A stretch of DNA of 58,493 nt. Origin: an uncultured Lentisphaeraceae bacterium (GTDB lineage Bacteria; Verrucomicrobiota; Kiritimatiellia; RFP12; UBA1067). The stretch lies in contig CAYMLQ010000003.1 in the NCBI GenBank assembly GCA_964390795.1, forward strand, positions 1-58,493. Reading direction: 5' to 3'. Below, in pieces: positions 2 to 52,198 of the stretch (within the stretch, counting starts at the first letter, position 1; each line of letters begins with the position of its first letter). Below the pieces are notes generated by a model. That model saw only the letters and a list, made by a program, of their open reading frames with translations, was not told where the DNA came from and did not search any database. A program made the position numbers and the translations under genes.

Positions 2-868
2 GGCTCGGGCAAGCAGGCCCGCGCCGTGATCGACGGGCTGGAGGCGGACGTGCTGACGCTGGCCTTGGCCTACGACATCGACGAGGTTTCGGCAAAGGGC
101 ACGCTGCTGGACGCGGACTGGCAGAAGAAACTGTCGCACAACAGCGCGCCCTACACGTCAACCATTGTCTTCCTAGTCCGCAAGGGCAACCCCAAAGGCA
201 TCAAGAACTGGGACGACCTGGTCAAGCAGGGGGTCGAGGTGATCACGCCGAACCCCAAGACCTCCGGGGGCGCGAGGTGGAACCACCTGGCGGCCTGGGG
301 GTTCGTGCTGGACCGCGAGCTGGGGGGCGACCTCGGCAAGCTGAACAAGACGGAGTTCGCGGCGCAGGTCGCGGCGGCGCAGGCCAAGGCGCGCGCGTTC
401 ATTGCGGATCTCTACAAGCACGTGCCTGTGCTTGACTCGGGGGCGCGCGGATCAACCACGACCTTCGTGCAGCGCGGCATCGGTGACGTGCTGCTGGCCT
501 GGGAGAACGAGGCGTTCCTCGCGGTCAACGAACTCGGGAAAGACCGGCTCGATATCGTGGTGCCTCCGATCAGCATTCTGGCTGAGCCGACGGTGGCGGT
601 GGTCGACAAGGTGGTTGACAGGCGCGGTTCGCGGGCCTTGGCCGAGGCGTACCTGAAACACCTATATAGCCCCGAAGGCCAAAAACTCGCGGCCAGGCAC
701 TACTACCGGCCGCGCATGCCTGAGCATGCGGATCCTGCGGATATCGCCCGCTTCCCGACGGTGAAGCTGATCACCATTGACGAGGTGTTCGGCGGCTGGC
801 AGAAGGCGCAGAAGGAGCACTTCGCCGACAGCGCCATCTTTGACCAGATCTATCTTCCGAGCAAGTGA
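2..868 (+). CDS. sbp: Sulfate ABC transporter substrate-binding protein (5' end truncated by the window)
   Basis: The frame is open from base 2 ([17 protein letters not shown]). It carries the Sbp/CysP motifs [28 protein letters not shown] and [25 protein letters not shown], and lies upstream of cysTWA. Confidence 0.95.
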
Positions 869-937
869 CAACAGGTCGCCAAGTTCTAGATGTGTTCTGA
901 CCTCGGGCTTGCCAGCGAGGTGACTGAAGGAGCGTTC

Positions 938-1765
938 ATGAAACTGAAAGAAAAAAGCGTGCTGCCTGGATTCGGATTGTCCCTCGGTTTCACCGTCTTC
1001 TACCTGTCGCTGATCGTGCTGGTGCCTTTGAGCGCGCTGGTATTCCGCAGCAGCGAACTCGGTTTCTCGGGGTTTATCGAAACCATCCTGCATCCGCGCG
1101 TGCTGGCTTCGTTCAAGGTGACCTTCCAGACGGCTTTTATCGCCGCCTTAGTCAATGTCGTTTTCGGCGTGACCGTGGCCTGGTTTCTGGTCCGCGGGCG
1201 CTTTCCTTTGAAGCGGGTAGTGGACGCGCTGGTCGATCTGCCCTTTGCGTTACCGACCGCGGTGAGCGGCATCGCGCTGACCGCGCTGTTCGCCCCGAAC
1301 GGCACGCTGGGCTCGGCGCTGGCCAAATTTGGAATTAAGGTGGCTTTCACAGCTACCGGCATCACGGTCGCGATGATCTTCATCGGTCTGCCTTTCGTGA
1401 TCCGCAGTGTGCAGCCCGCGTTGGCGGATCTGAGCAAAGAACTGGAGGAGGCCGCCCTAAGCTTGGGCGCCTCCAGGTTCCAGACCTTGTGGCGCGTGGT
1501 TCTGCCTCTGTTGGCGCCGCCTATCCTGAGCGGCTTCACACTGGCTTTTTCGCGGGCCTTGGGTGAGTACGGGTCAGTGGTTTTCATCGCGGGGAACATG
1601 CCGATGAAGACCGAGATCGCATCGCTGCTGATCATCACCAAACTGGAGCAGTTCGACTATGCGGGGGCCACGGCGATCGCCGTCGCGCTGCTGTCGCTCT
1701 CGCTGCTGGCGATCTTACTGGTCAACCTGCTCCAGACGCGGGCAACACGCTACTTAGGAAGCTGA
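938..1765 (+). CDS. cysT: Sulfate ABC transporter permease CysT (CysU)
   Basis: Motifs VLPGFGLSLG, DLPFALPTAVSG, an EAA loop and GEYGSVVFIAGN. The ATG at 938 has a GAAGGAG RBS and is preferred over 890. Confidence 0.95.
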   Translation: MKLKEKSVLPGFGLSLGFTVFYLSLIVLVPLSALVFRSSELGFSGFIETILHPRVLASFKVTFQTAFIAALVNVVFGVTVAWFLVRGRFPLKRVVDALVDLPFALPTAVSGIALTALFAPNGTLGSALAKFGIKVAFTATGITVAMIFIGLPFVIRSVQPALADLSKELEEAALSLGASRFQTLWRVVLPLLAPPILSGFTLAFSRALGEYGSVVFIAGNMPMKTEIASLLIITKLEQFDYAGATAIAVALLSLSLLAILLVNLLQTRATRYLGS

Positions 1766-1775
1766 GGCGGCCAAT

Positions 1776-2609
1776 ATGAAGAACAACCGTTCAAATCAAG
1801 AACTGGGCGTGTGGGGAAACCTCACGTTGTGCGCGGCGGCCTTGGCGATCATGGGGCTGCTCGTTGTGATGCCGCTGCTGGTCGTGCTGAAAGAGGCGTT
1901 CGCGGGCGGCGTGAAGCTGTGGCTGGCAAGCGTCAACGATCAAGACGCGCGGTCGGCGATCTGGCTGACCCTGGGCGTCGCGGCGGTGGTGGTGCCGCTG
2001 AACACCGTTTTCGGAGTGGCCGCGGCTTGGGCGCTCTCCAAATTCCGGTTCAAGGGGCGCAGCCTGCTGCTCTCGCTGGTGGATCTGCCCTTCGCGGTCT
2101 CGCCGGTGATTGCGGGACTGATCTTTATTTTGTTGTTCGGCCGTCACGGATGGCTGGGTACGTGGTTGACGGACCATCATATCCGGATCGTCTTTGCCGT
2201 GCCGGGCATCGTTTTGGCGACGCTCTTTGTGACCTTCCCGTTTGTGGCGCGCGAGCTGATTCCTCTGATGACGGAACAGGGGTCGGAAGAGGAGCAGGCT
2301 GCGCTGAGCCTCGGCGCGACTGGCTGGCAGATGTTTGTAAAAGTGACGCTTCCGAACATCAAGTGGGGGCTGCTGTACGGGGTCATCCTGTGCAACGCGC
2401 GAGCCATGGGCGAGTTCGGCGCGGTGTCTGTGGTCTCGGGCCACATCCGAGGCGAGACCAACACGCTGCCCCTGCACGTCGAGGTGTTGTATAACGAGTA
2501 CAGCTTCACAGCTTCCTTTGCCTGCGCCTCGATCCTGGCGGGGCTGGCGATCATGACGCTGATTCTGAAGACCATTGTGGAAGTGAAGGGCGAGCGCGAT
2601 GCCGCGTAA
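1776..2609 (+). CDS. cysW: Sulfate ABC transporter permease CysW
   Basis: Motifs DLPFAVSPVIAG, FVARELIPLM and ARAMGEFGAVSVVSGHIRGETNTLPLHVE. Confidence 0.95.
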   Translation: MKNNRSNQELGVWGNLTLCAAALAIMGLLVVMPLLVVLKEAFAGGVKLWLASVNDQDARSAIWLTLGVAAVVVPLNTVFGVAAAWALSKFRFKGRSLLLSLVDLPFAVSPVIAGLIFILLFGRHGWLGTWLTDHHIRIVFAVPGIVLATLFVTFPFVARELIPLMTEQGSEEEQAALSLGATGWQMFVKVTLPNIKWGLLYGVILCNARAMGEFGAVSVVSGHIRGETNTLPLHVEVLYNEYSFTASFACASILAGLAIMTLILKTIVEVKGERDAA

Positions 2610-2621
2610 CGGAGGTGTGTA

Positions 2622-3689
2622 ATGAGCATAACGATTCAAAACATCAGCAAGACCTTCGGGGCCTTTCAGGCGCTGAATAACGTCAGTCTGGAGGTTCCCT
2701 CGGGCGGGCTGACCGCGCTGCTGGGGCCGTCGGGATCAGGCAAGACGACGTTGCTGCGAATTGTGGCCGGACTTGAAAGTGCGGACGCGGACAAAGGTGG
2801 AAAAATCCTGTTCGATGGGCTTCCCGTGACGGACAATCCGGTCAACCGTCGCCAGGTGGGCTTCGTGTTTCAGCACTATGCCCTGTTTCGGCACATGACG
2901 GTTTTCGAGAACATCGCCTTCGGCTTACGGGTGAAGCCGCGCGGCGAACGGCTGTCTGGCGCCGAGATCAAAGCGCGCGTTTTCGAACTGCTGAAGCTGG
3001 TTCAGCTTGAGCAACTGGCGCAGCGTTTTCCGTCGCAGCTCTCTGGCGGGCAGCGGCAGCGCATCGCTTTGGCGCGTGCCTTGGCGATCCGGCCCAAAGT
3101 GCTCCTCTTGGACGAGCCGTTCGGCGCGCTGGACGCGCAGGTGCGCGCCGAATTACGCCGCTGGCTGCGGCATCTGCATGACACCATTCATGTGACCAGC
3201 ATCTTCGTGACGCACGACCAGGAGGAGGCGCTCGAGGTGGCCGACAGCATTGTCGTCATGAATAGGGGCGGCATCGAACAGGTGGGGGAGCCGAACGAGG
3301 TGTTCCAGCATCCCGCCACGGAGTTTGTGATGAAGTTTCTGGGCGATGTGAACGTCTTCCACGGCCGCATCCACAATGACACGCCGATTTTCACGGATGA
3401 GCTGAAAGACGAGCACGGCGTGCGTCTGCTCGTGCGTCCGCATGACTTGACCGTGCAGCTGCACCCCGGCACGGGAACCAGTCTGCCGGCAGAGGTCTAC
3501 CGCGTGCTTACGGCGGGTCCGCTGGTAAAGATTGAGCTGCTGAACGGCCAGAACAGTCTGGTGCAGGTTCATGTGCCGCATGACGTGTACCGGGCGGCGC
3601 CCGTGAAGCCGGGGCAGAAGGTCTACCTGGTGCCCAAAGAGTCGCGGCTGTACGGGAACGGCAACGAGCTGATCGAATATGTGATATAG
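2622..3689 (+). CDS. cysA: Sulfate ABC transporter ATP-binding protein CysA
   Basis: Walker [31 protein letters not shown] and a C-terminal TOBE-like region. GGAGG RBS. Confidence 0.95.
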
Positions 3690-3747
3690 AGAAGGCGTTT
3701 AGGCTGTAGGCTGTTAGGCTATAGGAAGAAAGAATTGGGGTGAAAGG

Positions 3748-4446
3748 ATGACGACGGAACAATTGAGAGAAGAACTTGAGGGCAAAGACGCGGAAAGGAT
3801 CATCCGTCGGGCGTTGGAGGCCTTTGGCGCGTCGCTGGTTTTCGCCACCTCGCTGGCGGCGGAGGATCAGGTGATCACCGATATCATCGCGCGCAACCGG
3901 TGGCCCATTCCGTTCGTCACGCTGGATACAGGAAGGCTTTTTCCAGAGACTTACGCGTTGCTGGCCGAGACGGAAAAGAGGTACGGGATCAAGATCAGGG
4001 CGTTCTTCCCGGACAGCGCCAAAGTTGAAGAGATGGTTGCCGAGAAGGGCGTCAACTTGTTCTACGACAGCAGCGAGAACCGCAGGCTCTGCTGCCGCGT
4101 GAGGAAGCTCGAGCCGTTGAAGCGGGCGCTGACGCCTTACCGCGCCTGGCTCTGCGGCCTGCGCCGCGAGCAGTCCGTCACGCGCGCCGCGCTCCATGTC
4201 GTCGAGGACGACGCGGCCAACGGCTTGACCAAGGTGAACCCGCTTGCGGCGTGGAGCGAGCAGGAGGTGTGGGGATATATTGCCGCACGCCATGTGCCCT
4301 ATAATCCCTTACACGACCAGGGTTTCCCCAGCATCGGCTGCGCGTGCTGCACACGCGCGGTCAAACGCACCGAGGACGTCCGTGCCGGTCGGTGGTGGTG
4401 GGAACAGCCGGAGCACAAAGAGTGCGGGCTGCATGAGGGGAGTTAG
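3748..4446 (+). CDS. cysH: APS/PAPS reductase, 4Fe-4S (APS reductase) type
   Basis: LDTGRLF, the CC pair in LCCRVRKLEPL, SIGCACC (CxxC), RAGRWWWE and KECGLH. Confidence 0.92.
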   Translation: MTTEQLREELEGKDAERIIRRALEAFGASLVFATSLAAEDQVITDIIARNRWPIPFVTLDTGRLFPETYALLAETEKRYGIKIRAFFPDSAKVEEMVAEKGVNLFYDSSENRRLCCRVRKLEPLKRALTPYRAWLCGLRREQSVTRAALHVVEDDAANGLTKVNPLAAWSEQEVWGYIAARHVPYNPLHDQGFPSIGCACCTRAVKRTEDVRAGRWWWEQPEHKECGLHEGS

Positions 4447-4475
4447 AAGTTAGGAGTTAGAAGTTAGGAGTTGAA
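4441..4475 (+). repeat. Heptamer tandem repeat (AGTTAGA/AGTTAGG) between cysH and cysD
   Basis: AGTTAGA AGTTAGG AGTTAGA AGTTAGG AGTTGAA. Confidence 0.9.
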
Positions 4476-4480
4476 ACACG

Positions 4481-5383
4481 ATGAGTACACTTTCGCAACT
4501 AAAACAGCTTGAAGCCGAAAGCATCCACATCTTCCGCGATGCCGTGAGCCAGGCGCAGAACCCCATCCTGCTTTACTCCATCGGCAAGGACTCGTCCGTG
4601 CTGGTGCGGTTGGCGCAGAAGGCCTTCTATCCCGGCCGTCTGCCATTTAAGCTGCTGCACATCGACTCCACCTGGAAGTTCCGCGAGATGATCGCGTTCC
4701 GTGACCGTTTCTGCACGGAGCAGGGGCTGGAACTGATTGTTCACTCGAACGAGCAGGGTAGGTCGGAGGGCGTGAACCCGTTCGACTACGGCAGCCGCAA
4801 GTATACCGACATCATGAAGACGCAGGCGCTCTTGCAGGCGCTGAAGGCCGGCAAGTACGATCTGGCCTTCGGCGGCGCGCGCCGCGACGAGGAAAAGTCG
4901 CGGGCGAAGGAGCGGGTCTTCTCGTTCCGCGACAAGCATCAGCAGTGGGATCCGAAAAACCAGCGGCCGGAACTGTGGAATATCTACAACGCCCGCGTCA
5001 ATCCCGACGAGAGCGTACGCATCTTTCCGCTTTCAAACTGGACCGAGACCGACATCTGGCAGTACATCCGGGTCGAGCGCATTCCGATCGTGCCCCTGTA
5101 CTTCGCCGCGCCGCGTCCGGTGGTGGAGCGCGACGGGCAATGGATTATGGTTGATGACGAGCGGATGCGATTGCATCCGGGGGAGCATCCCATTGAGAAG
5201 AGGGTCCGTTTTCGGACTTTGGGCTGCTATCCGCTGACCGGCGCGATCGAATCCAGTGCGATGACCGTTGAGGAGATCGTGGCTGAGACGTTGCAGGTGC
5301 GCGTGAGCGAGCGCTCGACGCGCGTGATCGACCACGACGGCGATTCCTCGATGGAGCAGAAGAAGCGCGAAGGCTACTTCTAG
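4481..5383 (+). CDS. cysD: Sulfate adenylyltransferase subunit 2
   Basis: YSIGKDS PP-loop, [26 protein letters not shown] and the C-terminal KKREGYF. Confidence 0.97.
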
Positions 5384-5416
5384 TTGGAAGTTAGGCGTTA
5401 GGATTTAGGAATTGGG
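5382..5416 (+). repeat. Degenerate heptamer tandem repeat between cysD and cysN
   Basis: AGTTGGA AGTTAGG CGTTAGG ATTTAGG AATTGGG. Confidence 0.85.
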
Positions 5417-5428
5417 AGGCGAGAGCGC

Positions 5429-7291
5429 ATGAACGATATTGGAAACTATTTGGACGAACACGAAAACAGGAATCTTTTACGGTTTATCACCTGCGGCTCG
5501 GTGGACGACGGCAAGTCCACGCTGATCGGGAGGCTGCTGTTTGACAGCAAGCTGATCTATGAGGACCAACTGAGCGCGCTGCAGAACGCGAGCGACAAGA
5601 ACGGCACGACCGGCGCGGGCGAGATCGACTACGCGCTTTTGCTGGACGGACTGAAGGCTGAACGCGAGCAGGGCATCACCATCGATGTGGCTTACCGGTA
5701 CTTCTCAACGCCGCAAAGGAAGTTCATCATCGCGGATACGCCGGGACACGAGCAGTACACGCGCAACATGGCCACAGGCGCTTCGACCGCGAACCTGGCG
5801 ATTATCCTGATCGACGCGCGGTACGGCGTGGTGACGCAGACCCGGCGGCACGCGTTCATCGCGTCTCTTCTTGGGATCAAGCACCTGCTGGTGGCGGTCA
5901 ACAAGATGGATATCGGCGGATACAGCGAAGAGACGTTCCTCACGATCCGGCAGGCCTTCAGCGACTTCGCCCAGAAACTCGACATCCCGGACATCCGGTT
6001 CGTTCCCATTTCCGCGCTGAAGGGGACGAACGTGGCTGGACGTTCGCCTGAGTTGACGCCTTGGTATGCGGGCCCGCCGCTGTTAGAACTGCTTGAGACG
6101 GTCGACATTTCTCAGGATATTAATGTGCGCGACTTCCGATTCCCGGTGCAGGTGGTGACCCGTCCGCATCTCAATTTCCGCGGCTTTGCGGGCACCGTGG
6201 CTTCCGGTGCGATCAGAACTGGCGACAAGATCCGCGCGTTGCCGTCAAACAAGGCCTCGGTCATCAAACGCATCGTGACTGCGGACGGTGATTTGGACGA
6301 GGCCACTGTCTCTCAGGCTGTCACGTTGGAGCTGGCGGACGAGGTTGACATCAGCAGTGGCGATATGATTGTACGCGACAACAACCTGCCGCGCATGAAA
6401 GACCGGTTTGAAGCGATTGTGATCTGGATGTCTGAGACGGCGTTGAAAGCGGGTGATACTTACCTCGTTCGCCACTGCGGACGTTTCGTGAAGGCCCGTG
6501 TCGAAGCGCTGCTTTACGCCATCGATGTCAATACGATGAGCCATGCCTCTGTGACCGAACTGCCGTTGAACGGCATTGGGCGGATCGTCGTCGAGACGAC
6601 CCAGCCGCTCTATTTGGATCCGTACTCGGAAAACCACACAACCGGCAGTCTGGTCTTCGTCGATCCGATCAGCAACGTTACGGCTGGTGCGGCGATGATC
6701 ACCGACAGCGTGTTCGTTGATGCGGGCACGCCGCGCGTCATCAGCGATGCGGCCACTTTGCTGCGCGATCATGTGGAGCGGCGCGAGTTCTATTGGGAGA
6801 CCGGCTTAGTTTCTCCCAAAGACCGGCTCATACGCAACCGGCATGTCGGCAAGACCGTGATCGTTACCGGCGCGTCCGTCCAAGCGGTGCAAGCCTTTGG
6901 CAAAGAGTTAGAGCTTCGCTTGTTCAAGCTGAACCTGAGCTGCTATTATCTCGGGTTCTCCAGCCTTTCGCGCGGTCTGGCTTCGGATGTGCAGGACAAC
7001 CGTTCAGAGCGAGATGCCCGAATTCAGCGGCTCGGCGAGCTGGCCCGCATTCTAACCGATGCGGGACTCATCTTCATCACCGCGTTGCCGGCCGCCGATG
7101 GCTATACGATTGAGAGGCTCAGGATGCTGAATCAGCCGAACGAATTGCTGGTGGTCGCGCACGGCGAAGGGGCTAGCGAGGGTGTTTCGCCCTCCATCAT
7201 GATCGGCGATACGGTGGCGATCGAACAGAATGTGGAAGCCGTGCTGGGATTGTTGGCTGATCAGCGCGTGATTCCCGATTACTGCATCTGA
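5429..7291 (+). CDS. cysN: Sulfate adenylyltransferase subunit 1 (GTPase) fused to a degenerate APS-kinase-like C-terminal domain
   Basis: CGSVDDGKSTLIGRLL, EREQGITIDVAYRYF, DTPGHEQYTRNM and NKMD. The last ~170 aa resemble CysC but lack the P-loop. Confidence 0.93.
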   Translation: MNDIGNYLDEHENRNLLRFITCGSVDDGKSTLIGRLLFDSKLIYEDQLSALQNASDKNGTTGAGEIDYALLLDGLKAEREQGITIDVAYRYFSTPQRKFIIADTPGHEQYTRNMATGASTANLAIILIDARYGVVTQTRRHAFIASLLGIKHLLVAVNKMDIGGYSEETFLTIRQAFSDFAQKLDIPDIRFVPISALKGTNVAGRSPELTPWYAGPPLLELLETVDISQDINVRDFRFPVQVVTRPHLNFRGFAGTVASGAIRTGDKIRALPSNKASVIKRIVTADGDLDEATVSQAVTLELADEVDISSGDMIVRDNNLPRMKDRFEAIVIWMSETALKAGDTYLVRHCGRFVKARVEALLYAIDVNTMSHASVTELPLNGIGRIVVETTQPLYLDPYSENHTTGSLVFVDPISNVTAGAAMITDSVFVDAGTPRVISDAATLLRDHVERREFYWETGLVSPKDRLIRNRHVGKTVIVTGASVQAVQAFGKELELRLFKLNLSCYYLGFSSLSRGLASDVQDNRSERDARIQRLGELARILTDAGLIFITALPAADGYTIERLRMLNQPNELLVVAHGEGASEGVSPSIMIGDTVAIEQNVEAVLGLLADQRVIPDYCI

Positions 7292-7302: not shown

Positions 7303-8844
7303 ATGAAAGACAAGTACAGCGAATTGAGAGAGGCTTTTGAAGGATTGATTACGGGTGGCATGGCGCCCGAGGCGCTCAAGCCTGTCGCCGCTCAGTACGG
7401 CATTTATCAGCAGCGCAACGGCAATTTCATGTTGCGCATAAGGGTCAATGGGGGGGAGATCGCGTGTGAGAGACTCGCCGGAATTGCCGACCTCCTTGAC
7501 ACCACGGGCGGGTATGCGCATCTGACCTCAAGACAAGACATCCAGTTGCACGATATCCCCGCCGCACGCGTTGTCGCTGCTGTCTTGGCGAGTGACCGGA
7601 TGGGCCTGCCGTTCAAGGGTGGGGGAGGGAACACGTACCGCAATATTGTGGTGAGCGCAGACAGCGGGTTATCGGCGGATACCGCATTTGACGTGTATCC
7701 TTATGCCCATGCGCTGAACCGCGCGATGCAGGACTGCGAGATGGCCTTTGGCCTGCCGCGCAAGTTCAAGGCCGGTTTCTTTGCGAGCGACCGAGAGCGG
7801 TTACAGGCTGAGGTTCAGGATATGGGGTTTGTCGCGCAGATTCGCGAGGGGACGGAAGGGTTCACGGTCTATGGTGCCGGCGGCATGGGGCGCGAGAGTT
7901 CGGTTGGACTTGAACTCATCGGATTTCTGCCGGGCTCTCAGGTCATCCGCGCTACGGTGGCTTTATTGGAGTTGTTCCATAATCACGGTGACCGCGCCAA
8001 CCGGCATCAGGCGCGCCTTCGCCATCTGCTCAAACGGGTGGGGGCGGAGGCGTTCCAGCGACTTTATCTGGACTATTTCTCCCGGACGGAGGCGCCGCTT
8101 GTCGATGTGAATGATGCGCAGGGTCCTTACCCGGCGTTGATAGAGGGGCTTAAACGGGGGCGTGCGACGAGCCCGTCCGAGGATTTCGCTCGGTGGGCGC
8201 AGTTCGCGACGCGACCGACTCGCTTTGGCGGTGACGTCAGTTCGTCACGTCTCTTTGTTCCCTACGGCAATCTCGGGGCGGGACAGCTCCGCAAGATCGC
8301 CGCGCTGTCGGCCGAGTATGGGTCTCCGACCGTGCGTCTGCTGACCACGCAGGATATCCTGATCCCGTTAATCCACCGCTCGTCGCTGCCGGGTTTTTAC
8401 ACGCGGCTGCGGCGGGACTTGGCCGACGTCGATCTCACGTTCTCTTCGTACAAAGGGCATCTTGTGACCTGTGTGGGAGCGGCGGTCTGCAAGATCGGCA
8501 TGGCGGATGCGCCTGCGGTAGGGGACGGGATCGCGTCGGTGCTGGATCGCTATCTACCGCCTGACACGCCCGAGAAAATGAATCTTCTGAGAGTGATGAC
8601 GGACGATTTCCGCGTTTCGGGTTGTCCCAACGCCTGTTCGGGTCACCCGGCCGCGAAGATTGGCATTGAATGTTTCCTGCGGCGGGAGGGGGAAGAACTC
8701 AAGACGGTCGGTTTCGTGTGTACAGGAGCCGTGCTTGGGAGACTGGGCGAGTCACGGCTTTCGGAACGTGTGCCAGGCGGGCCTGTGCCGGTCGAACAAT
8801 TTGCCCAGAAAGTTCTGGAATTGGGATTGAGTCGCTTAACCTGA
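7303..8844 (+). CDS. Siroheme/4Fe-4S nitrite/sulfite reductase, likely the assimilatory sulfite reductase
   Basis: GIYQQR, FMLRIR, HLTSRQDIQLH, LPRKFK, the cluster-binding motifs CVGAAVC and SGCPNAC, and its position as last gene of the cys operon. Confidence 0.85.
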   Translation: MKDKYSELREAFEGLITGGMAPEALKPVAAQYGIYQQRNGNFMLRIRVNGGEIACERLAGIADLLDTTGGYAHLTSRQDIQLHDIPAARVVAAVLASDRMGLPFKGGGGNTYRNIVVSADSGLSADTAFDVYPYAHALNRAMQDCEMAFGLPRKFKAGFFASDRERLQAEVQDMGFVAQIREGTEGFTVYGAGGMGRESSVGLELIGFLPGSQVIRATVALLELFHNHGDRANRHQARLRHLLKRVGAEAFQRLYLDYFSRTEAPLVDVNDAQGPYPALIEGLKRGRATSPSEDFARWAQFATRPTRFGGDVSSSRLFVPYGNLGAGQLRKIAALSAEYGSPTVRLLTTQDILIPLIHRSSLPGFYTRLRRDLADVDLTFSSYKGHLVTCVGAAVCKIGMADAPAVGDGIASVLDRYLPPDTPEKMNLLRVMTDDFRVSGCPNACSGHPAAKIGIECFLRREGEELKTVGFVCTGAVLGRLGESRLSERVPGGPVPVEQFAQKVLELGLSRLT

Positions 8845-12764: not shown

Positions 12765-13874
12765 TTATACGCCACTACCGACGGCCACACCGGTCTCGCC
12801 ATCGAAATAGAGCGCGTGCTCTAGGTCGAGCGGCAAAGACACGGCCGCTCCGGGCGTGAACACGCGGTCCGCGCCAACACGCGCGACAACGCGGGTTCCG
12901 CACCCGGCAACCACCTGGACGAACGTTTCCGAACCCATGGGCTCCACGACGTCCACCGTCCCACAGACCACCGCCCCGCCTGCCGCACAAACAGGGGAGC
13001 CGAGCGCCTCAGGTCTGAAGCCGACCACCATGTCGCGCTCCGCATATGCTTCCAGCGCGTGTGCGTCAGGCTCCGGCACCCGCAGGAGTCCAGATCCGTG
13101 CGAGAACTGGCATCCACCTGACGGAAGTCGCACCACTCTGCCACGCAGAAAATTCATCGGCGGGGTTCCGATAAAGCCGCCAACAAACATATTTGCCGGC
13201 CGCCGATATACGTCCAAAGGCGGAGCGGCCTGTTGAATTCTGCCCTGATGCATGACCACGATGCGGTCACCCATGGTCATGGCTTCCATCTGGTCGTGTG
13301 TCACATAGATCATCGTCGCACCCAACCTGCGGTGCAGGCGGCTGATCTCGCTGCGCATCTCCACGCGCATCTTGGCGTCCAGATTCGAGAGCGGCTCGTC
13401 GAACAGGAAAACCTTGGGCTTGCGCACGATCGCCCGTCCCACGGCCACGCGCTGGCGCTGACCCCCGGAAAGCTGCTTCGGCAAGCGCAGCAGCAGGTCG
13501 CCAAGCCCGAGGATGTCGGCCGCCACCCCCACCCGCTCCGCGATTTCTTTTGCTGCCACTTTGCGCAGCTTGAGTCCGAACGCCATGTTGTCGAACACCG
13601 TCATGTGCGGGTAGAGCGCGTAGTTCTGAAAGACCATGGCGATATCGCGATCCTTCGGCGCCACGGTGTTCACGCAGCGTCCATCGATATGGACGGTTCC
13701 GGACGTTATCTCCTCCAGCCCTGCGACCATACGCAGGGTCGTCGACTTGCCGCAGCCGGAGGGCCCCACAAGCACAAGGAACTCGCCGCTCCCGACCGTC
13801 AGGCTGAAATGGTCGACGGCAAGGGCTCCGCCCTCATACCGCTTGCAAACCTGCTTTAATACGACTTCAGCCAT
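12765..13874 (-). CDS. Carbohydrate ABC transporter ATP-binding protein (MalK/MsmK/UgpC family)
   Basis: [33 protein letters not shown] and the MalK-family FIGTPPMN. Confidence 0.92.
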
Positions 13875-25230: not shown

Positions 25231-28200
25231 CTACCTCAGACGGATCAGCGTGCCGTTCACGTAGATAAGCTTCACCGCTCCATTGACGTAGGACACATGC
25301 CAATGTGTGCTTGGCAGATTGTGGGTACTGAACGTGCCACTGATTGATCCGGTATAGGTCATAATGGTGTAGACCTTACGTGTGTCCAACTGCTCCAGGT
25401 TAGCGATCTGCAAGCTCAGCCCGCTCATGTTGAGGTTACCCTGAACCGCCAGACGATCACTGCTGCCGTTCGCACCCAAATCAACCAGCAGGGTGCCATT
25501 GGCGGTCGTTGAAGCGGCGACCGTCAGCGTGCCGATGACGTTCGTTCCGCCGGGGGCGATGACATCCGTCACGGCGAGTGTGCCGTTGCTCACTGTTCCC
25601 GAGCCGCTGATCTGCGCCACAGTCTGCGTCGTGCCGCCGAGGTTCAGCGTGGCGTTGGTGTCCACTTCAACCACCGAATTCGAGTCCAGCAGATCGGCTC
25701 GGCCAAGCGCCGACAGCGTCAGGAAGCTGCCGTCACCCGGATCCTGCAAGCGCTGGAAGTACGCCGCATTCCTCGTGTTGCGACCCAAACGGTCGACGCC
25801 GATGCCAGGATAGCTGGTGTTCGGCCCCACGCCGCCGGTGCCTTGGCCCAGACGGACCTCGAGCGCGTGCGGGCCAGGAGACATCGTGACGTTGGCGAGG
25901 ACGTTAGTACTGTGCACACCGTCGTTAATAATCGTCACACCGTCGATCTTCACCAGTCCGGAGTCGTCGAAGGCCTTGTTGAAGGTCCAGACCTCATTCG
26001 TGGCGGAGTTGTTCCAGATGTAGCCGGAGTAGATGTAGGTGCTGTTGTCGAGCCAGATGCCGCCCGAAGCCGCATTGCTGGCGAAGCTCAGGTAGGCGTT
26101 TGTGACAGACAACTTCACCTGCGACATGGGGTTGGGCGATGTCAGATCGAAGTTGGAGAGAGCGCTCCGACCCTCGTACAGGCCTGCACGTTGTGAACGC
26201 GAGACGGGCGCCAGAGTCAGCGTGCCTTCAGACACAACGAGCGGTTGCGCGGTCTCTTGCGCGGCCGACAGCGTGGCCGAGTCAGGCCCGATCTTGTTCA
26301 GCGATGCGTTGAACGTGCCGTTCGAAACGGAGCCGGAGAGAACCGTAACCGAGCCGTTGGTGATCGTGCTGACGAAGCCACCCAAGTCGTAGGTGCCGCC
26401 GTTCACGACCACGGCCGCGTTGGTCGGTATCGCGTTGGGGAGCCCGAGACGGAGCGTGCCGCTGTTGATGAGCGTCGTGCCGCCGTAGGTGTTCGTGCCC
26501 GCCAGCGTCAGCGTGCCGGAGCCCAGCTTGGTGAGTCCGCCAACGCTGGTGTTCAGCGCCAGTTGGCAGAACCCGACCGTTGCCGGCGTGGTCGCGCCGC
26601 CGCCGACCAAGGTGGCGACGGGTGCGTCGTACCACTGATAGCCTACGCCAGAGCTGGTGATCGTGATGCCGGTCACCTGGCCCTTGGTCGGGCTGCCGTC
26701 GTCCAAGTCTATGGTTGCGATCGCGGTTGCGCCCAAGCCGCTTCCACCGGTGATCTTGACGGCCGGAGCGCCGATGTAGTTCGTGCCGCCGGTCAACAGC
26801 GGGATGTAGGTCACGCCGTAGCCGGTCGGGGCCAAGAGCGACTGGCCGACCGTGACGGTCGCGTTCGACGAGTCGATCACCGCGCCGCCGGGGTAGACGG
26901 GGGCGGCGGTCAGGCCTTGCATGAACGCGTTCGTACTGCTGCCAGCCAGCAAGGTGCCTCCGTTGAAGCCGAACACCGTCGGAGTGCCGGTCACTTGAGC
27001 ATAGACTTTGTTCGCGCGAATCGTACCGCTGTTCAGGTTGACCGCAGCCAGGTAGCTGCCAGCGCTCCTGGCCATGTTGAGCATACGGCCGTTAGGCGTG
27101 GTGTCCAGCAACGCGCTCGAACCCAGCATGTTGATCACGCCGTGGTTGGCGGCGTTACCCGCGTAAGACAACGTGGTGTCGTTGGCTCCGGGGGGCGCAG
27201 TCACTGAGCCGCCGAACATGTTCAGGATGCTGATGCCGGTGCCCCAGTTGAAGATCAACCACCCGTTGGGGGTCTGAACCTTAACGGTGCCGTTGTACAG
27301 GTCGAAGACGCCGTTGCCGCCGCCGCCGCCGCCCAATCCCAGTTGGCCGGTGGTGAGGCTGCCATTGTTCATGCGGTAGTAGCCGTAACCGCCGCCCCCG
27401 TTGCCCAAGTTCAGCACTTCGGTGCTGCCAATCGTGGGGCCAACGGCAAGGATGCCGTTCTTCTGGATGAAAGCCCCGGAAGAGCCGTTGACATTGCCAA
27501 GCAACAGTTTGCCAAACGTCGCGTTGGTCGAGAGCGTCGCGACGCTGCGGTCACCGCTTGCCGAGGCGACAGTCACGACGTGCGTGGTGTTCGTGCCAAT
27601 GGTCGTTACACCGTCAATGATGAGTGACGTGTTCGTCGATCCGCCGCTCACCGTAATCAGGCCAGGAGCGTTGGTGCTCGATGACGGCAACACCAGCGTG
27701 CCGCCGTTGACGATGAGCGACCCCGTAAAGGTGTTGGTTCCGTTGAGCGTTAGCGTGTTATTGCCTCGCTTCGTCAGGGCGAGCGCCTTGGTCAGGTTAC
27801 CCAGATAGTCCACGTCGGCTGGCGTCGTGTCGATGCTCAGCACGGCTGTGTTGCTCGCGAACGTGCTCGTGTCATGCAGGCTCTTGATCTGATCCGCGTT
27901 CCAGCCCGTCACGCCGTCATCCGAACGGAGCGCCAGCGTCGCGGCGGGGGCGATCGTCACCTTGCCTGCATCGTACCCGGGCAGTGAACCTGGGGCACGG
28001 GCGAAGAGCGTGCCATTGCTGATGATCGTTTGGCCGCTGTAGGTGTTGTTGGTACTCATGAGCCACAGGGTGGACGGCGACGAGCCTGACCTGACCAGCG
28101 TGCCCGGTCCGGAAATGTCGCCGTTGATCGTCCAACTGACGTTGGCAGATCCGTTGTTGAGGTAGGACTTGCCGTTTAGGACCACCGGGCCGGCCCAGAT

Positions 28201-31200
28201 GTTCTGGTTTGTGGCGGGGACAGTTCCTGACCCTGTGAAGAGCGAGTTCTCGTTAAGCACAAGTGTCCACAAAGGCATGGAGCCAACAAAGTTCCAGAGG
28301 TCGAACGTGCCGCCGCTGTTGACCGTGTTCGTGTTGGCGGACGTTCCGTTGATCGTGGCTGCACTCTCGAAGCGCAACCGGCCCTGGTTGATCGCGATGT
28401 GACCCGCTCCCGGGTTTAGGAGCGTCGTGCCTCTAAGCGCGATCTCGTTCACATTGGTCTTCGAGAGTGTGTAGCCGTTCAGGTCAAGTGTCGGCGAACC
28501 GGTGAGCAAGTCCCAGCGCTGGTTTCCGCCAAAGGTCGTGTGGCCGGCAAGGGAAATCCGGCTCATCGCGCTGACCTGCGTCGTGGTCGAAACGTTGACG
28601 ATCGCACCCGCACCATCGTAACCGGCACCGCTGACGATAAAGAGCCGGGTGCTCAAATTTAACTGGTCCATCGCACGTGTGCCTCCGACGTCGGGCGTAC
28701 ACCCCAGATTGAGCGTGGCGCCCTCGGCGATGATAACACTTTCCGTTGAATTACCGAACGCGTTGTTCTGGTTAGGACGAACCATGCCCGCATTGATGTA
28801 GGTCGGCCCCGTGTAGGTGTTGGCACCAAGCAAGTGGAGCTGGTTCGTTCCGCTCTTGGCGAGCGAACCCGCACCGCCGATCACGTTGCTGAGGCGCTGC
28901 GCGAACGGGCCTCCAAACTCGAGCGTTCCCGCGTTGATCGTCACCGCGCCGGAGAAGGTGTTCGAACCGGCGAGCACGGCCGTGCCAGAACCGTATTTGC
29001 TGACCGTGGACGCAGTCGTGTTATTGGCGACGGCGGCATTGACGGTCAGCACCGCACCCGCATTGTTGTTCTCAAGTTTCAGGTTCCCGCCAGGGTTGAG
29101 CGGCGCGACATACCCGTTGCCCGGGTTTGCTCCAAGCGTCATCGACCCTTGGCCGGCGGCGATTGTCAGCGCGGACGCCAGCAGCGTCTTGTTGGTCGTG
29201 TAGCTGACCGTGTCGATGGTTGCAGCAACCGGCTGGCTTTGCTGCACCATGAAGATCCGGTTGGTCCAGATGCCTTCAAGGGTGATCGGGCCGGAGTCAC
29301 CGGGTTCGGTGATCTGGGCGAACGCGTTGGCGTTGTCGGGCACGACCGAGTTAGGAACGTTACCGCGGGCGGCCAGGTTGGTCACGACGTCGCTGCCCGA
29401 CGCCCCGAACGCGTAGACGCCCAGGGTACTGCTGTAGGCTGCGAGGTTTGTTCCGTTAACCGTTGCCCAGGCGCCGATGGGGCCGTTCGCCTGAGCCGTG
29501 ATGTAGATGCGGTTCTGGTCAGACTGTCCGAGTCCCGTACCCGTGAAGTCGAGCGTCGCGCCCGACGCGTAGGCGAGCGAGGCAATGGTCACGACCGAGG
29601 TCTGTCCGCCGTCGGCCAGCGAGGTGGCGAACGTGTTTGTCGAAGCCGTCACGGAGAGCGCGCCCATGCGCTCGCTGTAGTCTGCCGCGCCGCCCTCGTG
29701 AGCAAAGCGCAGTGTGCCGCCGGACAGCGTGATGCCGGTTAGGTCGCGCAGACGATCCGTCGCGTTGGTCAACTCGCTGTTACGAAGCTCCAAGACCGCG
29801 TTGCCTGAGAGCGTGAGGGCACTTGTTCCGGCAAGCGCTCCATTCGCTCCGGCCAAGACGAGGCTACCGCCGCTGATCGTTGTTGCGCCGCCAAAGGTAT
29901 TTGAACCGTACAGCGTCCACGTGCTGGCGTTGGCCTTGGTCAGCGAGAGCGTGTTCAGTCCGTTGCTGATCGGCCCCGTGACGACGTTACCCAAGCTAAG
30001 ACCGTCCAGCCAGAGGGTTTTTGCGGCCGACGACCTCAAGATAGCCGCAGTGCCGACTCGAATCGTAGCATTATTGGTTGGAACAAGGATCACGCTGCCG
30101 GCACTACCCGAACTGAGATTGATCGAAGGTATGTTCAGGGCCGGGACGCCATTCACAACGTTGGTAGCGGCCGACACGTTGATCGTGACGGAGCCCAAAT
30201 CGAAGTCACCGAGCGAATGGCTTACGGCATCCTCGCTGCCGCCATTGCCAAGCACGACGGTTGCGACGCTCAAGCTGTTCATGAGCACATAGTTCGTGAA
30301 CGCGTTGACGCCGTTGTGATCGAGGTACAGCGTTGCCACCGTGCCAGGGATGGTGATCGTACCTGTGCCCAGCGCATTCGGGTGCGTGGCAACCAAGGCC
30401 CCGCCGTTGAGCGTGGTGCCGCCAGAGTAAGTGTTGGCGTTTGAGAGCTTCCAGATTCCGGCGCCAGACTTCGCGACGGTGATCGCGTTCCCGTAGGGCG
30501 TGTTACCGATGACGCCCGAGAACTCACCTATACCGCTGGTCGAACCTTGGAACGTCAGCGACTTCGCCCCGATTCCTGAATGCATCAGGCCACCGGTCAA
30601 CGCGAGGAGGTTTGTGCCCGAGTGGTCGATGGTGCCGCCGCCCGTGGTGCCGGCCAGGTCGATCACGCGGTCTGAGGTCTCGCCCATTCCCGCGTAGACC
30701 AGCGTGCCGGGGGCTGTCGTGTAGCCGAGCTTGACGGTGCCCTGTGCGGCCGATGTCGGCGCGCCGAGCGGGCTAGCCCCGCCACCAACGCTGCCGAGGG
30801 TCGCGACTCTTAGCGCACCCGCCTTGACCGCAGTCGGGCCGAGGTAGGTGTTGGCTCCGGAGAGCGTCAGCGTGGTGGCACCCACCTTGCTGACCTCATA
30901 CGGGCCGTTCATTTCGCTGATCGGGCCGGAAATTTCGCTGTTTGAGGATTGCGAGCCAAAGAAAGCGTCACCCACGCCCGTGATGGGGCCGCAGAGAGCG
31001 ACGGGGCCAGCCCACAGGCCGGCGTCCAGTCGGAGCTGACCGTAGGACTCGCCGGTATCGCCGCCGTAGAGGTTGAGGGTCGCGTTGCGGGTGACGGAGG
31101 AGTTCGCCCACAGCGTGCCGTTGGTCAGGACATTGACCGTCGCCGCGGCGTTGTCGAGGCCCGTCATTTCGGCTCTGGAGGCTCCGGCAAAGGCGCCGAC

Positions 31201-34200
31201 GCCGATGTTCCACACGCCGACGAAGCCGGAGTAGTTGCCGGTCAGGTAGATACGCGCGCTTCCGGTTCCAAGGGAGACGTTGTTGGTTCCGGCGCCGCTC
31301 AGGCTGTTGTTGAGACCGGTGTAGTTCACGTCGCCGGTGCCGCCTGCGCCGGCATCCAGATTGAGTGTGCCGTTATTGGTGACTCCGCCCGTGCCGAGGC
31401 CGCCCGAGTTGGACACCTGGAGCACGCCGCCGACATTGATGAGGGTACCGCCGCTGTAGGTGTTGGCGTTGGCCAGCCTGAAGTTGGCGGCGCCGGACTT
31501 GACGAGCGCGTTGGTGCCCGCGATGGCGCCGGAGCCGGACAGTGTGTAGGCGAAGGTCGCGTTGTTCGCCGTGACGCCGGCCGGCGTGACGGTGGTAGTC
31601 AGCGTGACCGCATTGTTGAGGCTGACGTAGGTGTCATCAAAGACGACCGGATCGCCGACAGAGCCCGCCGTCTCCTGGTAGTAGGCCGAGGCAGCCGCGC
31701 TGTCCTTCCAAATCAGGTTAGCGCTGTCGTTGATGTTCCACGATCCGTTACCTGCGGCGCCGGTGCCCCACGTAAGGGCAGCAGCCGAGCCCGCGAGGTT
31801 CAGCATCAGCGTGTTCCCGACCCAAGACAGGGTGCTGCCGCTGTAGCCGCCGGCAAGGGTGAGTGCCGGTACGGCCGAAGGAGCGGTGCCGCCCACGGTC
31901 ATCAGCGGATAAGTGCCGTTCGCAACAGTGAGTCCGGTGAGAATGACCCTCACGCCCGGCGTCACGGTGAAGGCCGCATCGCCAGTTACCGCCAAAGGCG
32001 CGGTCGTGGCACTGGGCACCGCCGCGAAAGCGAACTCCAGGTCGGGCGCGCCGCCGCCGCTGAGGCCGGCGCTGGTGGTCAGGCCCGCAACGGCAGCCTG
32101 GGCGTCGGAGCCGGCGTAGCGGACGCCGAAGAGCGCGTTGGTTCCAGTGCCTACCGACTGTACCGTGACGGCGCTGTTGCTGCACGAGGCACCGGTGACG
32201 AGCACAAGGCGTCCGCCGTTCACAACAGTTGCGCCGCTATACGTGTTGGTGCCGGTCAGGGTCAGCGTGCCGGCGCCGCGCTTGGTCAGGCCGCCACTGG
32301 TGTTGGGCACCGTGCTGGCGCTGCCGCTCTGGGTCACTGTGCCGCCGCCGCCCGTGAAGGTGAGCGTGGGGGTGCCCATGTGGTAGTTCGCGCCCGGGCT
32401 GGTCAGCGTAACGCCCGTCAGGTTGCCGTTGCTGTCGATCGTGGCGACGGCGCTGGCGCCGTTGCCAAAACCGGCGATGTCGACGATCGGCGGCGCGATG
32501 AAGCCGGTGCCGCTGAAGGTCATGCCGGCGAGGCTGACGCCGTTGCCCCACGGGCTGTGCAGAGACTGTCCGATGGTGAGGGCGTACCCGCCGTCATCGA
32601 TGGTGGCACCGCCGGCGTAGATACGCGCGGCCGTCAAGCCGCTGATAAAGGCGGCGTTGTTCTTGTTGGCCTTCAGCGTGCCGCCGTTGAAGTTCAGGTA
32701 GCCAAAGGCTCCGGAATACTGGGTGACAGCTGGAACGGTGACGGTGCCGCCGTTTAGGTTGGCAATGCCGACGACGCCCGCCCCATTGCCGAAGCGGAGC
32801 GACATGCCTAGGTTCAGGACGTTCAACGCCGCGCTGCCGGAGACGTTCAGGATGCCGCTGGCGCTGTTGCCCACCCGGACATCACCGGCTCCGGCGGCCA
32901 TGGTCACGGTGCCGCCTGTCAAGGTGGCCACACACGTGTTCGCCACGGCATTCTGGTAGGAGCCGATTTCCAGAGTGTTCAAGTTCACGGTGACCGTGCC
33001 GCCGCTGACGAGCAACTCGCCGCGGTTATTTCCGGTAGCGCCCGACGCGCGGCCTATTGCTAAGTAACTGGCGGAGGTGACGCTGCCGCCGGTGACGTTC
33101 AGCGCACCGAAGCCGTTCTGGCCGTTGCCACCTGCACCGAGCCAGATGTCAGAGCCCGCATTCAGTACGCCAGCACTCAAGTTGATGACGCCGATGGCGC
33201 CACTTGTCGTGCCGACCTGCAAGGCGGGCTGCGAGTTCTTGGTCGCGTTCACCGTGCCGCCGGTGATGTTGACAACCGCTTTGCTGGACAAGGTGCCGAC
33301 GTTGAGCAGTCCCGCGTTGGCGGTGTTGCCCACGTTGAGTCCGGCGCCTGCGGGGATATCCACGATGCCGGAGGCGAACGTCGTCGCGCCGGTATAGGTG
33401 TTGGCGGTTGCGAGCGTCAGCCGGTTCGTGCCGAGCTTGCTGAACGTGCCTGCACCCGCAATGACGCCGCTACCTGCGAACGTGTAGGCATACAGGTTAT
33501 TGGTCATCACGACGCTCGATGGGCTGGGCGCACCAGACAACGTCACCGTTGAAGGCCCGGTGAGCGTTGAGTCGTCGAAGAGCACATTGTCGCCTGCTGC
33601 GCCCGAGCCGAAGGGTTCCTGATAGTAGGCGTAGGCCATCGCGGCACTGTTCGTCCACACCAGGTTGGCGCTGTTGTTGATGTCCCACGTGCCGCTGCTG
33701 GTCACGCCGGGGGTCCACTTCAGCGGAACGCCGGAAGCGAAGAGCCGCAGCATGAGGGTGTTGCCGTTCCAATACAAGAAACTGTTGGTGTAGCCGCCGA
33801 CCATGTTCAACGTCGGGACGACGGTAGGTGCCGAAACACCGACGACCATCAGCGGATAGGCGTTTGTCGGGACGGTCAGGTTACCCATGTAGACGTTGAC
33901 TACGGGGTTCGTGGCGAACGTGACCGTGTCGCGGACTCTGAGCGGTGCCACGGTGGTGCTGGGAAGTGCCGCAAAGGAGAAGTCCAGAGCCGGGCGGCTC
34001 GCCGCCGGCGCGAGGGAAACGGCGGTGACCAGATTCGAGCAGGTCCACTGCGTGTTCGCTGCAGAGTATAGGATATTCAAGGAGGCGGCGGCATCGGCGA
34101 CGTCGCTCGCCTGGACAGTCACGGTGCTGTTGCTGCAGGAGCCGCCAGTGACAGCCAGTATCCGGCCGTTATTGCTCGTAAGCGGGCCGCCCAGCAGGCT

Positions 34201-44532: not shown

Positions 44533-44594
44533 AACAACCAACCTCTTACTATTAATAGCCACGACCTGCACGCTTCCCAATTGAAGATGGTGAC

Positions 44595-51786: not shown

Positions 51787-52095
51787 CAAGGCAAGCGCAT
51801 CTTAATTTTCAGGTCTGAGATTACGGGCTGGGGCGGTCACTCCCGAGGCATCCGCGGGCGCCTGCGCGACAGGGTCGGGTGTCAGCGAGTCGGGTACGCC
51901 CCGAGAGAGGCGTCCGGGGCGTGGACAGGCGCAAAGCGGCGGCGGGTGGCGTGCGTCCGTGCCCGGCTAAAACGAGGAGAGCAGCTCGACGAGGAAGCTT
52001 CGTCTGAGCTCGGCGCGCATGCGCTTGCTGCGCAAGCTGCCTTTCGCCTTGCTGGAGCGCAGGATGTTGAGGCAGATCTTGCGCAGCGCGCCGAG
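51787..52095 (-). mobile_element. ISAs1-family insertion sequence remnant (transposase C-terminus and one terminal inverted repeat)
   Basis: 52095-51967 encodes LGALRKICLNILRSSKAKGSLRSKRMRAELRRSFLVELLSSF*, an ISAs1 C-terminal pattern. CAAGGCAAGCGCATC at 51787 resembles ISAs1 ends. Confidence 0.7.
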
Positions 52096-52198
52096 TGACA
52101 GTACACCGTTGCGTCGTTGGGATTATTGTGGTATTACACATGACGGACGAGTTCATCGAGCGAAGGTTCCGTCCTGCCAGCATAAAGGAGAGCCTCAC

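Follow-up and report, generated by a model that had tools for sequence, protein, structure and literature searches.

The window analysed in this study is a stretch of 58,493 nucleotides from an uncultured Lentisphaeraceae bacterium of the Kiritimatiellia (GenBank assembly GCA_964390795.1, contig CAYMLQ010000003.1, positions 1 to 58,493). At its left end lies one sulfate-assimilation operon, read on the forward strand in the order sbp-cysT-cysW-cysA-cysH-cysD-cysN-sir. Here, we focus on two of its products, the ATPase of the sulfate importer, CysA, and the GTPase subunit of ATP sulfurylase, CysN, whose C termini share the ending [D/E]-Y-x-I. We weigh the evidence that these endings are docking motifs for a CysK-type O-acetylserine sulfhydrylase, through which sulfate import and activation could be tied to the demand for cysteine.

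The cysA gene (2622..3689, forward strand) encodes a protein of 355 residues, scored at 380.5 bits by the TIGR00968 model (cutoff 342.75) and matched by the Pfam families ABC_tran and TOBE_3. It comprises an ATP-binding cassette (ABC) domain, a TOBE-like regulatory domain and a C-terminal extension (residues 341-355, positions 3642..3686), made up of a linker predicted to be flexible and the terminal E-Y-V-I. The codons of this motif occupy positions 3675-3686 and the stop codon 3687-3689, the DNA at 3675-3689 reading gaa tat gtg ata tag. The cysN gene (5429..7291, forward strand) encodes a protein of 620 residues, a GTPase subunit fused to an APS-kinase-like domain (APS, adenosine 5'-phosphosulfate), which reaches 656.8 bits with NF003478 (cutoff 590) and 592.9 bits with TIGR02034 (cutoff 336.1). 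Its sequence closes with QRVIPDYCI, in which the terminal heptad V-I-P-D-Y-C-I (residues 614-620) spans positions 7268..7288. D-Y-C-I itself is found at 7277-7288 and the stop codon at 7289-7291, with gat tac tgc atc tga at 7277-7291. Hence, both the translation and the DNA bear out the shared ending on which the original prediction was built. The two carriers have unrelated folds, since Pfam finds ABC_tran and TOBE_3 in CysA and GTP_EFTU with an APS_kinase-like domain in CysN.

The operon opens with sbp/cysP (26..868), which codes for a sulfate-binding periplasmic protein (Pfam SBP_bac_11, E 7e-29); its 5' end possibly lies upstream of position 26, as a longer open frame extends to base 2. 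Two sulfate ABC permease genes, cysT (890..1765) and cysW (1776..2609), both matched by Pfam BPD_transp_1, separate it from cysA. Downstream of cysA, the cysH gene (3748..4446) codes for a reductase of the thioredoxin-dependent APS type (TIGR02055, 266.6 bits, cutoff 235.3), and cysD (4481..5383), directly upstream of cysN, for the small subunit of ATP sulfurylase (TIGR02039, 484.9 bits, cutoff 396.6). The last gene (7303..8844) encodes a sulfite reductase of the NirA/ferredoxin type (Pfam NIR_SIR and NIR_SIR_ferr). All these genes lie on the forward strand. Neither CysD, which ends in KREGYF, nor the sulfite reductase carries the tail. Elsewhere in the window we noted a single open reading frame (ORF) of 6449 residues (25231-44580, reverse strand), a 971-residue protein with a hydrazine-synthase-alpha middle domain (45710-48625, reverse strand) and a 1908-residue protein of DUF5122 beta-propeller and Ig repeats (52019-57745, forward strand).

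Rarity and conservation of the tails

Among the 284 six-frame ORFs of at least 60 residues in the window, a C-terminal [DEN][YFW]xI was found in two, which are exactly CysA and CysN. As a background we used 80 listed cysN loci from other genomes, where four of 1850 complete ORFs of at least 150 residues end in [DE][YF]xI and three of these four carriers are themselves CysA or CysN homologues. By these sequence counts, the sharing of the tail by CysA and CysN exceeds chance. A further ABC ATPase of the window, with OB and TOBE domains of the MalK type (12765-13874, reverse strand), does not end in isoleucine. The tail is thus no general trait of TOBE-type ATPases in this genome.

Conservation in orthologues had been chosen beforehand as the test that could refute the original prediction, and we found that both tails are strongly kept while the linkers vary. 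The CysN set comprised the query and 119 matches of 56-96% identity. A terminal [DE][YF]xI is present in 118 of these 120 proteins, both exceptions being shorter (532 and 594 residues), and a terminal isoleucine in 119. When the 119 relatives that end in isoleucine are read from the C terminus, Ile is found at -1 in all 119, Cys at -2 in 111, Tyr at -3 in 118 and Asp or Glu at -4 in 119. Further in, Pro at -5 and Ile at -6 each occur in 118, and at -8 to -10 the entropy rises to 2.2-2.7 bits.

The CysA set (the query and 120 matches, 60-97% identity) is more variable in its wording of the motif. Here, [DE][YF]xI closes 83 of the 121 proteins, the wider [DEN][YFW]xI closes 99, and 107 end in isoleucine. 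Among these 107, Tyr stands at -3 in 98 and Asp, Glu or Asn at -4 in 99. Entropy anchored at the right end is 0 bits at -1 and 0.57 at -3, versus 2.1-3.4 bits at -5 to -10, and many of the relatives end exactly in DYVI. Moreover, both tails were present in each of eight CysA/CysN pairs that probably share a contig, as judged from identical lengths of their longest contigs.

Two observations concern variation within the motif. Cys619 of CysN (7283-7285) adjoins the terminal isoleucine, and the same position in CysA is occupied by V, A, T or S; this cysteine may be a redox- or persulfide-sensitive position. In addition, three CysA relatives (P0112, P0120 and P0121) end in GDGI, GSGI and GEGI instead of DYxI. 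Such endings belong to the other known class of serine acetyltransferase (SAT) tails, described for E. coli-type and Leishmania enzymes (PMC3388911; bioRxiv 10.1101/2025.03.26.645513).

Phylogenetic reach

The names borne by close homologues agree with a place of the source organism in the Kiritimatiellia. By the names of the carriers, the CysN tail occurs in Kiritimatiellia, Lentisphaerota and Victivallales. The 80 listed loci cover many phyla, mostly others than that of the window, and the relatives from the Kiritimatiellia among them are L001, L002 and L027. The CysN end is masked in L001 and CysN runs off the contig in L027, which leaves 78 readable ends. Among the loci listed, only L002 (Kiritimatiellales, ending IEYFI) and L045 (Brevundimonas, ending EDFSI) have a tail-like end. 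From these sequences, the CysN tail is confined to the wider clade of the window. The Brevundimonas protein (L045, 9971-11884), a CysNC fusion, shares its last four residues with the CysE peptide of Mycobacterium tuberculosis, and two CysNC proteins of Thalassospira (L046 and L067) end in AWYPDI and AWYPEI. The isoleucine tails on these alphaproteobacterial proteins may have arisen independently.

On the other hand, the CysA tail has a much wider, though patchy, distribution and also occurs outside the lineage, in Planctomycetes, in Neisseria gonorrhoeae and on a Bacillota megaplasmid. In a Planctomycete clade, which includes Gemmata obscuriglobus, Frigoriglobus tundricola and Isosphaera, the motif is present in 117 of 120 CysA proteins on a linker about 10 residues shorter. 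CysA ends in NELIEYSI in N. gonorrhoeae and in PDDYSI in Niallia taxi. Among 150 representatives obtained by clustering at 50%, 19 carry the tail, many of the other 131 being fragments; among full-length representatives the count is eight of 30. We also built a FastTree phylogeny of 90 CysA rows from which the last 20 residues had been removed. Its rows were every third close relative, every twelfth match of the Planctomycete set, nine named species and those 30 representatives that are full length; the remaining 120 of the 150 were left out as partial. On this tree, the tail label requires at least 12 changes, gains and losses counted alike, of which six are forced by starred branches, and the shuffled mean is 29.6. 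The CysA tail therefore occurs in several separate lineages.

These distributions bear on the alternative that the tails are functionless and owe their likeness to chance, preserved by descent. Near relatives do share endings by descent and contribute part of the counts above. However, the motif persists in relatives of 56-60% identity, in which the entropy of neighbouring linker positions reaches 2-3.4 bits. It also recurs in several separate CysA lineages, and other proteins carry it about a thousand times less often. We consider it extremely improbable that the tails have no function.

Tail structure and the CysN pseudo-kinase domain

Structures were predicted with AlphaFold2 from alignments of 38 rows for CysA and 20 rows for CysN, with a mean predicted local distance difference test (pLDDT) of 81.5 and 70, respectively. 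In CysA, the block pLDDT falls to 64 at residues 341-350 and to 43 at 351-355, versus 89-94 in the preceding TOBE domain, and the tail is predicted to be flexible. In CysN, the last predicted helix (residues 598-611) is followed by a nine-residue tail, which is modelled as a short helical turn with a block pLDDT of 72.

The domain from which the CysN tail extends (residues ~440-611, positions 6746..7261) is a degenerate APS kinase, as judged from an alignment to the Arabidopsis APS kinase 3uie and a partial Pfam match. In this alignment, the P-loop GLSGSGKS of the plant enzyme is replaced by GASVQAVQ and LDGDN by LGFSS, so that DGD becomes GFS. The Walker A P-loop and the DGD element that mark an active kinase in bifunctional CysN/CysC proteins are thus both altered. 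Pfam APS_kinase aligns over profile positions 2-81 of 152 only (E 2.6e-7), and the model for bifunctional CysN/CysC (NF004035) gives 709.7, just short of its cutoff of 715. Across the set of relatives, G.SG[SAGT]GK[ST] was found in none of 120 CysN proteins, although the pattern is strict and also missed 26 long CysN of other phyla. Accordingly, the plain name CysN given in the original prediction is right as far as it goes and needs to be extended, since an APS-kinase-like domain, catalytically dead, is fused to CysN, and it is this domain that bears the tail. A dead kinase fits a route of direct APS reduction, which needs no 3'-phosphoadenosine 5'-phosphosulfate, because CysH scores above the TIGR02055 cutoff. 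Taken together, the sequence comparisons suggest that the APS-kinase-like domain of CysN is probably a regulatory pseudo-kinase. A separate observation comes from CysN/CysC-type proteins of Bacteroidota and Chlorobium (L020, L037, L040, L056, L061, L065 and L076), which have a common end of approximately [IF][YF]P[LA] followed by zero to four residues; in these groups, the domain may carry a further conserved motif at its C terminus.

Both tails extend from domains of a regulatory type, and anion binding is known for TOBE domains as well as for APS-kinase folds. The tails might act within their own complexes, their likeness to SAT tails being convergent chemistry without a common receptor. In such a scheme, the CysA tail would fold onto its TOBE domain or onto the partner CysA, for instance with its carboxylate occupying the anion site as a pseudo-ligand, and the CysN tail onto the dead kinase or CysD. 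The moderate pLDDT and the helical turn predicted for the CysN tail would suit this arrangement. The CysA tail, by contrast, is predicted to be disordered and not packed. Moreover, two unrelated domains would have had to acquire the same four-residue end independently in one operon, and an intramolecular latch would not usually combine a fixed terminus with a linker whose length differs between clades by about 10 residues. An action confined to the carriers' own complexes therefore seems quite unlikely to us.

Docking into CysK and comparison with known systems

The precedents cited in the original prediction are confirmed in the literature. C-terminal isoleucine tails of SAT, of the regulator CymR and of the toxin fragment CdiA-CT dock into CysK. 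Known SAT tails include DYVI in plants and DFSI in M. tuberculosis CysE (PMC9547175; PMC3388911), and further CysE tails are DYII in Staphylococcus aureus and DFMI in N. gonorrhoeae. The terminal isoleucine has been described as the essential anchor of CysK-binding peptides (PMC9547175). Free DYVI inhibits the cysteine synthases of Leishmania major and Arabidopsis thaliana in competition with O-acetylserine, with a reported inhibition constant of 4 uM and a half-maximal inhibitory concentration of 7-8 uM, versus ~1500 uM for GSGI, which makes it about 200 times better (PMC3388911). A tyrosine at -3 strengthens binding as well: the peptide MNYDI binds Salmonella typhimurium CysK with a dissociation constant (KD) of 0.22 uM, compared with 11.8 uM for the native tail, a gain of about 50-fold (PMC9547175).

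The nearly invariant positions of the tails studied here, Ile at -1 and Tyr at -3, coincide with these published determinants of affinity. In this sense, the comparative data give good support to a short docking motif of the CysK-binding type in the C-terminal four to seven residues of CysA and CysN. A CysK-type receptor is favoured because the active site of CysK is known to accept such tails from SAT, CymR and the CdiA toxin. On this basis, we think it somewhat more probable than otherwise that both tails dock into a CysK-type O-acetylserine sulfhydrylase and are released by O-acetylserine. We also co-folded CysA residues 240-355 (38-row alignment) with E. coli CysK, taken from Swiss-Prot as a stand-in; the score was 0.28, against a mark of 0.32, in a run that had no controls, and by the rule of the method this value speaks neither for nor against docking.

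The regulatory scheme that we propose would work as follows. Two unrelated proteins of one operon would have acquired [D/E]-Y-x-I at the end of a flexible linker. When sulfur is replete and O-acetylserine scarce, CysK would hold both tails. Acting on the C-terminal regulatory domain of CysA, this would restrain sulfate import and, acting on the dead-kinase domain of CysN, sulfate activation; CysK itself would be blocked as long as the tails are bound. When sulfur runs short, the accumulating O-acetylserine would displace the tails from the active site by competition, which would free both enzymes. Three elements of this scheme are inferred, namely which protein is the receptor, whether docking inhibits or activates, and the release by O-acetylserine. 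The original prediction had described the docking of both tails as a possible sulfate-assimilation metabolon. Its docking part gains from the conservation of the tails and from the match between their fixed positions and the published binding determinants, whereas the metabolon was overstated. We rejected a substrate-channelling metabolon because a docked tail is reported to be competitive with O-acetylserine (PMC3388911). A docked tail fills and blocks the active site of CysK, so that reciprocal regulation is more likely than channelling.

Several findings weigh against this interpretation. All the support for docking into CysK is comparative, and gene neighbourhood adds none. A Pfam scan found no pyridoxal-phosphate-dependent cysK/cysM and no cysE among the 27 larger ORFs of the window, as the original prediction had stated for cysK and cysE. 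Similarly, a phmmer search with E. coli CysK and CysM detected no homologue in the 80 listed loci, among ORFs of at least 80 residues lying up to 10 kb from cysN. The conservation in CysN spans seven residues, including Pro at -5 and Cys at -2, and thereby goes beyond the known requirements of CysK peptides, and the moderate pLDDT and helical turn of the CysN tail leave room for it to pack onto its own domain. The tail is missing from 76 of the 78 readable CysN ends of the listed loci and from the CysA proteins of E. coli, Acinetobacter, Ralstonia, Sinorhizobium, Azospirillum and Pseudoalteromonas. In Salinivibrio, CysA ends in VYDI. Since the tails are missing from many well-studied bacteria, the mechanism would be lineage-specific. 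N. gonorrhoeae, whose CysA bears the tail, is described as having an active CysK, and the preprint on this enzyme names cysA only as a transporter gene (bioRxiv 10.1101/2025.03.26.645513). The same source reports that the CysE of this species, with its DFMI end, formed no cysteine synthase complex in vitro, which means that the motif alone does not guarantee binding.

Some of these points would equally suit a shared docking motif with another receptor, such as a CysM or CysK-paralogue sensor, an adaptor or protease that reads degrons, or another subunit of the pathway. In the degron variant, an adaptor or protease would read hydrophobic C termini and turn over the sulfate-assimilation machinery together. 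Conservation, specificity and flexibility point to a functional C-terminal motif without naming its receptor; the additional conserved Pro, Ile and Cys of the CysN heptad exceed what has been reported for CysK peptides, and no cysK was found beside these genes in the window or the listed loci. Nevertheless, the motif fits the CysK-binding consensus exactly at the isoleucine of -1 and the aromatic residue of -3, the tails sit on proteins of the very pathway that feeds CysK, and CysA tails also sample the second SAT class, G[DSE]GI. As for CysM, it is reported to bind such peptides only with millimolar KD (PMC9547175). We regard a receptor other than CysK as unlikely, and docking into CysK remains the reading that we favour.

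A far-reaching version of docking into CysK can be formulated, which we put forward only tentatively and consider doubtful. Across several bacterial phyla, CysK would act post-translationally as the master switch of sulfate assimilation. The switch would operate through a portable tail of four residues, which CysA would have acquired more than once and which, in Kiritimatiellia and Victivallales, the dead-kinase domain of CysN would have acquired as well. Whenever O-acetylserine is low, the dimer of CysK would grip the two regulatory domains in a CysA dimer and close import, as an independent counterpart of the plant interaction between the sulfate transporter SULTR1;2 and O-acetylserine(thiol)lyase (OASTL). 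Through the nearly invariant cysteine beside its terminal isoleucine, CysN would in addition respond to redox state or persulfide.

The control of sulfate assimilation in bacteria is taught mainly as transcriptional, by CysB or CymR with O-acetylserine derivatives, together with feedback inhibition of CysE. If docking into CysK is true, a direct protein link would run from the last enzyme of the pathway, CysK, back to import and activation, and would constitute a fast post-translational layer. It would also explain the readiness with which CysK binds client tails, and would provide a bacterial parallel to the interaction of a plant transporter with OASTL. We found no description of a CysK-type tail on CysA or CysN, or of an interaction of CysK with either, in the full-text literature, a coverage that excludes most subscription journals. 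The sequences thus suggest a known docking site with new, pathway-internal clients, although an earlier mention is possible. The CysA tail is present in culturable bacteria (Gemmata, Niallia and Neisseria), and the dead APS-kinase domain of CysN is flagged as a probable regulatory module.

The closest known system is the cysteine synthase complex, in which SAT, like the two proteins studied here, presents a flexible peptide with a C-terminal isoleucine preceded by an aromatic and an acidic residue. The carriers differ, being in our case the ATPase of an ABC transporter and the GTPase subunit of ATP sulfurylase, two steps upstream of CysK. The likeness is one of sequence; binding has been demonstrated for the SAT tail and is predicted for those of CysA and CysN. 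The proposed interaction also resembles those of CysK with CymR in Bacillus and Staphylococcus and with CdiA-CT(UPEC536), where unrelated clients other than SAT reuse the docking site through an isoleucine tail. Unlike these clients, a transcription factor and a toxin, the candidates here are enzymes and transporters of sulfate assimilation. In plants, Arabidopsis OASTL-A has been reported to bind the STAS domain of SULTR1;2 and to lower sulfate uptake (PMC4212615; PMC12501120, citing Shibagaki and Grossman 2010). The logic proposed for CysA would be the same, that is, a cysteine synthase acting on the cytoplasmic regulatory domain of a transporter. However, SULTR1;2 is an SLC26/SulP protein with a STAS domain, for whose interaction the accessible text states no isoleucine tail, whereas CysA belongs to an ABC transporter and carries a TOBE domain and a tail.

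Among the sequence relatives of CysA are structures of the MalK, MetN and ModC type. Regulation of ABC importers through the C-terminal domains of their ATPases is known, as in the inhibition of MalK by EIIA-Glc and the trans-inhibition of MetN and ModC. In the same manner, the CysA tail hangs from a TOBE-like regulatory domain, the place where these other importers take their inhibitory signals. In MalK, MetN and ModC a folded domain senses a protein or the transported ligand, whereas in CysA a terminal peptide would recruit a downstream enzyme.

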